Of a stretch of DNA of 57,804 nt, positions 2,560 to 4,411 are shown piece after piece (the stretch's first letter is position 1; every line of letters starts with the position of its first letter). Origin of the DNA: Alphaproteobacteria bacterium. GTDB lineage: Bacteria > Pseudomonadota > Alphaproteobacteria > Reyranellales > JAQSWP01. Where the stretch lies: positions 1 to 57,804 of the forward strand of contig JAQSWP010000001.1 of NCBI GenBank assembly GCA_029266575.1, given 5' to 3'. The notes beneath the pieces were generated by a model, which did not search any database, was not told the origin of the DNA, and was given only the letters and a program-made list of their open reading frames with translations. A program made the translations under genes and the position numbers.

Positions 2560-3027
2560 ATGCAGATCGAGCAAATGCTGAAGAAATTCACCGATGCCGT
2601 CGAAAAACACGATGGCGCAGCGCTGGGCAGACTTTTTGCCGAGGACGGCGTTTACCACGATGCGTTCTATGGCGCGTTCCATGGCCGGACCAAGGTGGCC
2701 GAACTGATCGACGTCTGGTTCTACAAGACGGCCAAGGATTTCAAATGGGACATGATCGAACCGGTGTTCGACGGCCGCACGCTCTATGTGCGCTACGTCT
2801 TCTCCTACAATTCGATCCTGCCCGAGGCCAAGGGCGCGCGGGTGATGTTCGAAGGCGTCAGCATCATGAAGCTGAACCAGGACGGGCTGATCGAGGAGTA
2901 TCGCGAAGTGGCCGATACCGCCCCGGCGCTATTGGGCCTGAATTTCCCGCCCGAGCGTGTCGCCAAGATCAAGCTCAAGCACGGCGCCGAACTGCGCGGC
3001 AGGGCAGAGGCGAAAGGGCATCTTTAA
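2560..3027 (+). CDS. NTF2/SnoaL-like domain protein
   Basis: 155 aa; LFAEDGVYHD...G.FHGR, FEGVSIM, GLIEEYRE pattern; GGAGG RBS. Confidence 0.8.
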   Translation: MQIEQMLKKFTDAVEKHDGAALGRLFAEDGVYHDAFYGAFHGRTKVAELIDVWFYKTAKDFKWDMIEPVFDGRTLYVRYVFSYNSILPEAKGARVMFEGVSIMKLNQDGLIEEYREVADTAPALLGLNFPPERVAKIKLKHGAELRGRAEAKGHL

Positions 3028-3040
3028 ACCCTCTGTCCCT

Positions 3041-3112
3041 ATCAAGGATATCAAGGACATCAAGGACATCAAGGACATCAAGGACATCAAATCTATCAAG
3101 GCAATCAAGATT
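3041..3112 (+). repeat. Tandem 9-bp array (ATCAAGGAC consensus), 8 units with the last three degenerate
   Basis: ATCAAGGAT, ATCAAGGAC x4, ATCAAATCT, ATCAAGGCA, ATCAAGATT read directly; two more units at 3168-3185. Confidence 0.95.
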
Positions 3113-3114
3113 CT

Positions 3115-3168
3115 TAGGGACGCTGTTACACCGCGCGCCTTGAAGCGCGTGGTGTGACAGTGTCCCTA
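3115..3168 (+). repeat. 24-bp inverted repeat / hairpin with TAG...CTA ends
   Basis: TAGGGACGCTGTTACACCGCGCGC-CTTGAA-GCGCGTGGTGTGACAGTGTCCCTA; the three non-Watson-Crick positions are all G-U on the + strand. Confidence 0.9.
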
Positions 3169-3289
3169 TCAAGGATATCAAGGACAAAGAGCTGGCGGCG
3201 AAATAAGGCTGTTTTGCTGGTCCGGAGGCTTGCTGGACAGGCCTGCATTCCCATGTGAGCATGCGTCTGCAAGGTAGCGAGGAAACGCC

Positions 3290-4411
3290 ATGGCCAAGCG
3301 CGACGATCGTCATATCACGCACGACAAGGCCTACAACACCGTAGCGCCGGACGATTTCCGCGCCATGATCGACGTCGATCGCTACGAGACGCGCTCGGAC
3401 GCCTTCGACGGCATTATCTCGGCGACGCACGATCATTTCTGGGATCCGTACGACCCGGCCTATCTCGATTTCACGCAGAAATTCGACGTCGAGAACGAAT
3501 ACCTGCTGCCGCCGGAACGGCAGATCGAGCTGAAGTCGGCGGTGGCCGACAAGCTCGATGAGAAGCAGAAGATCCGGCTGGTGAACGAGAACGTGCGCTG
3601 GTCGATGTCGCAGATCCTGCATGGCGAACAGGGCGCGCTGTCGCTGTCGGCCAGCCTGTGCGACATCCTGTTCGATCCCGGCGCGCAGGAATATGCCGCC
3701 AACCAGGCGCGCGAGGAAGCCCGTCACGTCGCGGGCTTCGGCCGCTATGTGAAGCTGCGCTGGGGCAAGCCCTATCCGGTGGGCGAAGCCTTGGGCGATC
3801 TGATCAACGAGCTGGTGCTGACGCCGATCGTCTACAAGAAACTGGTCGGCATGCAGATGCTGATCGAGGGCCTGGCGATGGGCGCGTTTGCGCACACCCA
3901 CGCCCACACACGCGATCCGCTCTTGAAGCGGCTGGTGCAGCTGGTGATGACCGACGAGGCCTTCCACCACAAGTTCGGCAAGATCTGGGCCGACCGCACG
4001 GTGCCGAAGCTGACGCCGCAGGAACACGAGATCGTCGAGGACTGGGCGGCAAGCTGTTTCGAGACCCTGCTGTTCAACCTTACCAATATCCGCCAGCGCC
4101 GGGTGATCTACGAGCAGTTCGGGCTGGACTGGGAATGGGTGCGCGATGCCGTGCGCGAGGTCTATTCCGACGACAATAGGCGCAACGACACGCGCGACCA
4201 GGGCAACATCTTCAACGTGCTGGCGCGCACCTTGTGGAAGGCCGGCATCATTACCGACCGCACCAAGCATGTGTACGCCGCCTGGGTCAATATCGAGGGC
4301 TTTGCCACCGACGGCGACTTCATGATCGGCGATGCGGTGGCTGCCGAAGGCATCGAGATGCTGCGCGAAATCAACAAGGGTCGCCGCCGGATCGGGCAGA
4401 AGGTCGCCTAA
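3290..4411 (+). CDS. Ferritin-like di-iron protein (AurF/N-oxygenase-like fold)
   Basis: Paired E...EEARH and E...DEAFH di-iron ligand motifs; 373 aa; GAGG RBS. Confidence 0.8.
   Translation: MAKRDDRHITHDKAYNTVAPDDFRAMIDVDRYETRSDAFDGIISATHDHFWDPYDPAYLDFTQKFDVENEYLLPPERQIELKSAVADKLDEKQKIRLVNENVRWSMSQILHGEQGALSLSASLCDILFDPGAQEYAANQAREEARHVAGFGRYVKLRWGKPYPVGEALGDLINELVLTPIVYKKLVGMQMLIEGLAMGAFAHTHAHTRDPLLKRLVQLVMTDEAFHHKFGKIWADRTVPKLTPQEHEIVEDWAASCFETLLFNLTNIRQRRVIYEQFGLDWEWVRDAVREVYSDDNRRNDTRDQGNIFNVLARTLWKAGIITDRTKHVYAAWVNIEGFATDGDFMIGDAVAAEGIEMLREINKGRRRIGQKVA

Follow-up and report, generated by a model that had tools for sequence, protein, structure and literature searches.

A chromosomal array of 9-bp repeats with a long hairpin as the probable orphan target of an initiator-type protein family

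An intergenic element at positions 3034..3186 of the window, the 57,804-nucleotide stretch of contig JAQSWP010000001.1 analysed here (assembly GCA_029266575.1, an alphaproteobacterium of the Reyranellales), is probably an orphan iteron-plus-hairpin module and the cognate target of P365, a protein predicted to carry two winged-helix domains of the Pi/RepE/RctB type. Comparison of loci across genomes has shown that array type and protein family travel together, and we infer from sequence that the protein binds the array. The parts of the element and the proposed partner gene are as follows.

3034..3040, + strand: head motif TGTCCCT; (G/A)TCCC(T/C) stands before the first unit in all copies of the family
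3041..3112, + strand: array of eight 9-bp direct-repeat units, the proposed iterons for the Rep-like P365
3115..3168, + strand: long hairpin with 24-bp arms (3115-3138 and 3145-3168) and a 6-nt loop
3161..3186, + strand: second head and two units (TGTCCCT ATCAAGGAT ATCAAGGAC A), the second copy of a 26-bp repeat
G000:C85:36813-37907: P365 gene, 365 aa, single copy, between GlcE-like and GlcF-like genes

The window's own genome (G000; 3.66 Mb, 316 contigs, 82% complete) was examined together with a sister species of the same genus (G004) in a comparison set of 61 related genomes, which are few and non-independent relatives. On contig C85 of G000, a module lies upstream of P365; it starts 19 bp from the start codon and runs away from the gene. 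Within the comparison set, P365 is present in G000, G004 and G006 only, and no genome but these three has non-coding arrays. G004 has 10 exact two-unit matches, G006 has 2, and G001 and G003 have 0 each; the DNA matches in G030 and G041 consist of a single unit each with no array. Among 300 other genomes sampled evenly from the class, one, G150, contains the P365 gene. That homologue (L150, G150:C32:30008-31216) has two in-frame TGA codons and no array upstream, and is possibly a decaying copy.

The association was approached from both of its sides. A loose pattern scan of public genomes yielded at least 117 stretches; of the 117 listed, most are coding (P-I-K-x-I-K) and about ten are real arrays. 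The non-coding arrays among the listed matches are from Rhizomicrobium, Brevundimonas, Allopontixanthobacter, Phaeobacter and Sphingomonas, and a P365 homologue (tblastn, 40-51% identity, or 40-58% in the widest tally) lies directly beside the head and array in every one of the loci of these five genera. Because this search had started from the array, the test was repeated starting from the protein. P365 homologues are encoded by 25 metagenome loci, several of which duplicate one another, and 20 of them include upstream DNA; the array CC(C/T)ATCAAGGnnATCAAGG... was found directly upstream of the homologue in 19 of these 20. The sole locus without it, L211, encodes the most divergent homologue (37% identity). 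Twenty-two gene-adjacent arrays supplied 108 units, whose consensus is (A/T)TCAAGG(N)(N). Successive units are 9 bp apart in 53 of 86 steps, and the final unit or pair of units is typically preceded by a step of 18-20 bp. Five genomes from other orders have no array but the gene-adjacent one, and the extra two-unit matches in them all lie in open frames. Read by eye, many loci could have a promoter for the gene itself here, with TTGAT in the first unit as the -35 element and a conserved TAGCAC, about 20 bp off, as the -10 element.

Other conserved features were seen around gene-adjacent arrays. In loci of Sphingomonadales and Rhodobacterales types (L058, L065 at ~2700-2850, L141, L204, L207/L208), the side of the array that faces away from the P365 homologue has a conserved stretch at a distance of about 130-170 bp. 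Its elements are, in order, a promoter-like TTGAATTTTAA...TATAT, ACAGCTTCGGCTGCTTCGGC... and a terminal GGGGAGAG-loop-CTCTCCCCTTTCC; the stretch resembles a gene for a small RNA with its terminator and has no Rfam match. Two loci of other orders, L058 (567-1295, - strand) and L065 (616-1335, - strand), have just downstream of the homologue a gene whose product, about 240 aa long, contains a PemK/MazF-like toxin domain (E 2e-7 and 3e-9).

The strongest single piece of evidence for the protein-array link comes from an 8,580-bp circular Citrobacter record (L183, NZ_CP056897.1). It encodes a P365 homologue of 29% identity (pairwise E 8e-31), and six ATCAAKG (ATCAAGG/ATCAATG) units with 10-bp spacing begin 26 bp past the stop codon of this homologue, followed by an 8-bp hairpin. 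The orientation of the array relative to the gene is opposite to that in the other loci. Its other genes include those for a tyrosine integrase, a Gp13-like capsid protein and a lambda-I-like tail protein, and the whole has the appearance of a tiny episome, phage-like or satellite-like. The annotation of the record gives no further replication gene and its 1.2-kb gap holds no long open reading frame, which leaves the P365 homologue as the sole candidate replication gene. An Enterobacter kobei record of 34.3 kb (L184, NZ_CP110875.1) is composed of four tandem copies of the 8.58-kb Citrobacter unit. Neither the Citrobacter gene nor its array has a match in E. coli genomes.

P365 belongs to a sizeable family of unannotated proteins. 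It has no family above threshold in Pfam, NCBIfam, PHROG or PADLOC; the best matches, both sub-threshold, are Pfam MarR_2 (E 0.0096) and a PHROG family (E 0.024). A transposase or HUH signature is absent from its Pfam results, and a PDB profile search returned 0 matches at E <= 1. The wider family comprises 1,129 clusters at 50% identity (E <= 0.001), or 897 at E <= 1e-10. Ten sampled members are all called "hypothetical protein" or are nameless at source, and sixteen distant members have no Pfam domain apart from weak winged-helix matches. No relatives of P365 were found in IMG/VR viral contigs or in a phage collection, and literature searches gave nothing on the protein family or on an ATCAAGG iteron.

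The fold assignment is based on an AlphaFold2 model of P365 with a mean predicted local distance difference test score (pLDDT) of 85.9 and a predicted template modelling (TM) score of 0.82. The C-terminal half folded alone, from 6 sequences, gave a pLDDT of 50.2 and was unusable. Foldseek on the PDB returned N-terminal matches to single winged-helix domains only (E about 0.01), and the ESM Atlas returned "hypothetical" clusters with HTH_36, DnaD_N and RepL as weak structural neighbours (TM 0.35-0.42). In a structural search independent of Foldseek, Pi bound to iteron DNA (2nra) came first, with a Z score of 8.2 and 179 residues aligned at a root-mean-square deviation of 5.3 over model residues 28-322. 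The top 20 rows of a second structural search are all RepE54 or Rep-iteron complexes with single-stranded DNA (Z 6.9-7.8), aligned through 168-176 residues over 27-321; RepE54 reaches Z 7.8 with 174 residues aligned. Domains 2-3 of RctB align with the model at Z 6.0 over 167 residues. The Rep structures used for comparison were PDB 2nra, the RepE54 entries and 8aan/8ac8, and Pi, RepE and RctB are the only structural matches that cover both P365 domains (residues 27-322). From this model we read P365 as an iteron-binding protein with the Rep WH1-WH2 fold and a helical C-terminal extension of ~45 residues.

In the window, the 26-mer TGTCCCTATCAAGGATATCAAGGACA is present at 3034-3059 and again at 3161-3186; the bases flanking the two copies differ, so that the repeat is exactly 26 bp. 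The array is made of ATCAAGGAT, four copies of ATCAAGGAC, then ATCAAATCT, ATCAAGGCA and ATCAAGATT, the units starting at 3041, 3050, 3059, 3068, 3077, 3086 (ATCAAATCT), 3095 and 3104. Units six to eight are decayed, and Tandem Repeats Finder reports 5.6 copies of period 9 with 97% matches for 3041-3090. The second head overlaps the 3' arm of the hairpin. This layout of a duplicated 26-mer, a decaying array of eight units and a 24-nt stem confirms the initial annotation of the element, and the A-rich composition described there was likewise confirmed. A accounts for 32 of the 81 bases of 3034-3114 (39.5%) versus 17.9% window-wide. The GC content of the array is 39.5% versus 64.3% for the window, and no stretch nearby is richer in AT. 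The window has 25 occurrences of ATCAAGG compared to 5.94 +/- 2.30 in shuffled sequences, a count that none of 100 shuffles attained; eight of these occurrences are located within 3041-3183 (143 bp), all on the + strand.

Contigs X1 and X2, from two other public runs of different studies, cover the entire element; they show 6-9 substitutions and lack exactly one of the 9-bp units, near 3050. Since independent contigs span it, the element is not a mis-assembly or a collapsed repeat, and the unit number varies between strains.

Searches with a covariance model found three modules in G000 (the window copy, C179:6394-6515 and C85:36667-36788) and five in G004, three of the latter at sites orthologous to the three G000 copies. 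With a model of the type-2 module defined below, nothing was found in the other 59 relatives beyond a marginal match in G026 (E 0.008). A module is 120-155 bp long and consists of a GTCCCT head, ATCAAGG-type 9-bp direct repeats and a long GC-rich hairpin. All eight copies have GTCCCT or GTCCCC immediately 5' of the first ATCAAGG unit, while gene-adjacent arrays elsewhere mostly have CCCC, CCCT or ACCC at this position. Six of the eight form the type-2 arrangement, with GTCCCT, three or four ATCAAGG/ATCAATG units, ATGCGGAA, two more units and a 19-22-bp hairpin. Units are more numerous in the window copy and its G004 orthologue, and an inverted copy of the head supplies the outer pairs of their hairpin. 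They also have a second head 3' of the hairpin, followed by two units in the window copy and three in the orthologue; the second head of the window element aligns with the heads of the type-2 modules (MAFFT). These two copies are co-oriented with their neighbour genes, and the C85, C179 and L028 copies are opposed to theirs. No integrase, partition or other mobile-element gene is located beside any G000 copy.

Type-2 modules run about 150 bp past the main hairpin (L002:~1640-1760 and L003:~1290-1400; L030 and L031 in G004). This extension has a second, variable hairpin, a third hairpin GCCCGCC-TGG-CGGCGGGC with compensatory variants (GTGCGCC/GGCGCAC and GCGCGCC/GGCGCGC), and then a conserved CATGAGGCTTGGCAAG(C/G)AGGA. 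In G000 the block is present at L002 and L003 only. A separate intergenic repeat family was seen between the GlcE-like gene and the module on C85 (L003:1128-1340) and in G004 (L193): a long palindromic element resembling repetitive extragenic palindromes (REP), CCTCATCCTGAGCCCGTCGAAGGATGAG... and its inverse. It reaches 47 bits against the Rfam family AaHKsRNA41 on both strands, below the gathering score of 97.

The hairpin of the window element has 24-nt arms that are 88% complementary, and its outer pairs are formed by the inverted head copy (TAGGGAC/GTCCCTA). All three positions that are not Watson-Crick pairs are G-T on the + strand, so that RNA of the + strand folds as 24 continuous pairs. 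The predicted fold of the + strand RNA of the element has an energy of -67.5 kcal/mol versus -45.5 +/- 4.5 for shuffles (z -4.9). For the hairpin, the + strand is more stable than the - strand by 10.1 kcal/mol. Across the eight copies the + strand is better in four (by 4.0-10.1 kcal/mol), the other four are within 1 kcal/mol, and the - strand is never favoured. The homologous hairpin of the six type-2 copies keeps 19 pairs, 8 of the 19 by changes on both sides. The hairpin is kept by compensatory changes and is under selection. No stand-alone copy without an array was found in G000.

The history of the module can be followed through orthologous sites. P365 lies between the GlcE-like and GlcF-like genes in G000, G004 and G006, and these two genes are adjacent without P365 in G003; their names are provisional, from FAD_binding_4 and CCG/Fer4 domains. 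Between G000 and G004, P365 has a nonsynonymous divergence (dN) of 0.33 and a synonymous divergence (dS) of 0.70, and the neighbouring genes have dN 0.07-0.09 and dS 0.48-0.57. Together with the shared position, these values indicate that the gene is old at this site and that the protein is evolving about four times faster. In G001 and G005 the element is missing from the SnoaL/WrbA-like intergenic region; at this empty site in G001 (L187), an unrelated 14-bp direct repeat (TTCGATTACCGG, two copies) follows the SnoaL gene. The site of the G004 copy L028 is also empty in G000 (C22:6489-6502), with about 12 bp in place of about 148 bp, and no target-site duplication is found at this filled/empty junction. 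Only L002 has terminal inverted repeats, in the form of an inverted head at the far end. Orthologous sites with and without the module show it to be a discrete unit subject to gain and loss.

The copies L028 and L029 are 95.7% identical (110/115) and are 89-90% identical to the gene-adjacent L031, while orthologous pairs are 82-83% identical. Since L028 and L029 are closer to L031 than orthologous pairs are to each other, the sequence comparison suggests that both were copied from the gene-adjacent module within G004 after the species split. Two orphan copies have been kept at orthologous sites since that split. The orthologous modules of G000 and G004 are 85, 83 and 64% identical versus 63-70, 64-67 and 47% for their intergenic flanks.

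With three copies in G000, five in G004 and empty orthologous sites at the snoaL locus, the element is neither single-copy nor lacking in empty-site counterparts. The initial annotation had offered two readings, a non-autonomous repeat unit or an iterated protein-binding array, and both stand in part in view of the copy numbers, the empty sites, the variation in unit number and the partner protein family. Its further link to small four-helix-bundle or nuclease genes was not supported: the proposed partner is a 365-aa protein of predicted two-winged-helix initiator type, encoded on another contig. It had also seen no transposase or nuclease gene adjacent to the element, and neither of the two flanking genes encodes such a protein.

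2560-3027: gene for a SnoaL_2 protein; the element begins 6 nt past its stop codon, in the same orientation
3290-4411: gene for an AurF-like di-iron protein, with a Pfam score under the cut-off

Three other identities for the units were considered and dropped: integration host factor (IHF) sites (WATCAANNNNTTR), whose TTR portion is missing on inspection by eye; CcrM GANTC sites, which are inconsistent between units; and antitoxin repeats of type III toxin-antitoxin systems, which would have another orientation and longer units. An Rfam search of the three G000 loci, five loci from other taxa and the Citrobacter record gave nothing relevant.

The arrangement resembles the iteron origins of mini-F (RepE, ori2/incC) and R6K (Pi, gamma ori), in which tandem repeats of one orientation lie beside the gene of a two-winged-helix protein and one repeat set is at the promoter region of that gene. 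In the present case the initiator gene beside the repeats is not in the window; it is found at C85 and in the 19 of 20 protein-first loci. Unlike those origins, there is no DnaA box or set of AT-rich 13-mers and no similarity by Pfam or PDB profile search, P365 has its C-terminal extension, and the copies are chromosomal, scattered and each equipped with a 19-24-bp GC-rich hairpin. Extra repeat sets away from the origin are also found in plasmids, as F incC and P1 incA. The origin oriV of IncQ plasmids (RSF1010) combines iterons with ssi hairpins, primase signals paired on opposite strands. The module shares with it the order of iterons followed by a strand-specific hairpin (IncQ hairpins act as single strands), but it has a single hairpin and no primase gene nearby. 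In phage satellites, the SaPI/PICI iterons lie 3' of rep, and P4 has its ori and a distant second iteron cluster, crr. The Citrobacter episome is similar in having short iterons (6-8 bp in the satellites) right after rep of a small phage-related element. However, the satellite initiators are helicase/primase fusions, and P365 has no such domain.

A chromosomal parallel is provided by RctB of Vibrio cholerae and its remote chromosomal site crtS (PMC6212839, PMC3937223). In both systems a chromosome-integrated initiator of plasmid type would have sites far from its own gene, binding being a prediction in the case of P365. They differ in that crtS, which controls the second chromosome, is one site without repeats on a different replicon, whereas the remote sites described here are full iteron arrays and there is no second replicon.

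We propose that P365 binds the ATCAAGG units side by side, and that a monomer with its two domains probably spans two adjacent 9-bp units. In ancestral small mobile replicons, of which the Citrobacter episome may be an example, the array would have been both replication origin and auto-regulatory operator. In the present lineage, the gene-adjacent module would have gained the long hairpin and would then have been copied to a few intergenic sites as a non-autonomous module. The rarity of the hairpin elsewhere and the restriction of the array to gene-adjacent positions in other orders together indicate that orphan copies and long hairpin co-appear in this lineage only. An orphan site would most likely serve as an extra binding sink or a pairing partner for P365, comparable to incA/incC and crtS with their initiators. 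It may also modulate the neighbouring promoter or gene, and it is unlikely to be an active origin.

Several observations weigh against P365 as an iteron-binding partner of the element. No Rep family in Pfam matches the protein, MarR_2 below the cut-off being the only match, and Z scores near 8 are borderline by the structural tool's own note. The link between protein and array is purely comparative. Classical iterons are about 17-22 bp long and in helical phase, whereas the present units are 9 bp (10 bp in Citrobacter) and out of phase; their spacing is roughly half the 19-22 bp typical of classical iterons. No DnaA boxes (TTATCCACA or TGATCCACA, <=1 mismatch) and no AT-rich unwinding element separate from the array itself were found in 2900-3300. 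The fast evolution of P365 could mean that the gene is decaying. In G006, both P365 and its adjacent array are divergent, yet the orphan array has canonical ATCAAGG units. Finally, the wobble pairs that favour the + strand point to a single-stranded role, as RNA or DNA, which plain duplex binding does not need. Outside G000 and G004, a significant hairpin within 110 nt accompanies only 1 of 20 alphaproteobacterial gene-adjacent arrays; the long hairpin is outside the family-wide architecture and is left unexplained by the model. As to proteins of this fold, one report describes Rep proteins as also contacting one DNA strand beside the iterons (PMC10602881).

The G006 locus has features of its own. 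Upstream of P365 (L152:~1150-1330) it has a 9-bp-periodic array with TTCGA/TTCCA on one side of GTGTCCC and CTTGAGG/CTTCAAGG on the other, and its P365 has lost residues that are otherwise invariant (K84A, Y161H). Protein and site may have co-diverged in this genome.

A different view of the module is that it is a selfish non-autonomous repeat without host function, of the type of miniature inverted-repeat transposable elements (MITEs) or REPINs, mobilised through the + strand hairpin by P365 or another enzyme in the manner of RAYT transposases. REP and REPIN repeats are dispersed, intergenic, strand-specific hairpins with a single-copy RAYT transposase gene that is flanked by one copy. The P365 gene is likewise single-copy and flanked by one hairpin repeat, which is otherwise dispersed in intergenic DNA and co-occurs with the gene, only in gene-bearing genomes. 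The strand bias of the hairpin, the empty orthologous sites (that of L028 on C22 of G000 and the snoaL site in G001 and G005) and the identities among L028, L029 and L031, with their indication of copying within G004 after the split, are also what such an element would produce. We nevertheless consider this view unlikely. There are merely 3-5 copies and not hundreds, the repeat carries a tandem array, and P365 is modelled with a replication-initiator winged-helix fold in place of HUH and has no transposase or HUH signature in Pfam. No target-site duplication accompanies the module, terminal inverted repeats are limited to L002, and the two orphan copies that are stable at orthologous sites are better conserved than their flanks. 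It is noted that the selfish repeat overlaps with the proposed P365 target and is compatible with protein binding; the two differ only in who benefits.

The element could also act as a structured + strand RNA, either as a stabiliser or terminator in the 3' untranslated region of the SnoaL gene or as an AAGGA sponge that titrates an RNA-binding protein. The low folding energy of the + strand relative to shuffles, the compensatory changes in the stem, the fact that every wobble pair is G-U on the + strand, and the position of the element 6 nt past the SnoaL stop codon in the same orientation would all be expected of such an RNA. A weak match to RsmY (E 0.98, 17.3 bits versus a gathering score of 57) reflects its GGA motifs. 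Against this, no Rfam family reaches threshold, and a scan of 2800-3500 found no promoter-like or terminator-like site. Orientation relative to the flanking genes varies between copies, the Citrobacter array is oppositely oriented relative to its gene, and the ~20 bp between head and P365 start codon in the gene-adjacent copies leave no room for a promoter of its own. A function as RNA is therefore very unlikely. That P365 fires the module as a working secondary chromosomal replication origin is highly improbable, even with an iteron-like array that is locally the most AT-rich stretch, a partner of predicted Rep fold and homologues on a small circular episome, since DnaA boxes and a separate unwinding element are absent, no integrase, partition or other mobile-element gene lies beside any G000 copy, and three to five origins under one plasmid-type initiator would disturb replication of the chromosome.

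The proposed relation of P365 to the orphan arrays can be extended to a more speculative scheme, which we regard as quite doubtful. A Rep-family protein and its own origin would have become a chromosomal pair, and the origin module, iterons together with a strand-specific hairpin, would have been copied to new intergenic sites; the gene-adjacent copy would be the master, and the orphan copies would be 'origin-derived MITEs', dependent on a Rep-type protein in place of a transposase and kept as a genome-wide initiator-binding network. If true, this would be a new route by which non-autonomous elements arise and spread, via a Rep-type protein, and a new example of plasmid replication machinery domesticated for control at the level of the chromosome.

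The probable pairing of P365 with the array gives a likely role, together with a precise DNA motif, ATCAAKG, to a sizeable family of unannotated proteins. The motif is kept from Alphaproteobacteria to Enterobacteria, in iteron arrays with an unusual spacing of 9-10 bp. Conserved orphan iteron arrays scattered in a chromosome would bear on how plasmid-type initiators are tamed and on the origin of short intergenic repeats.

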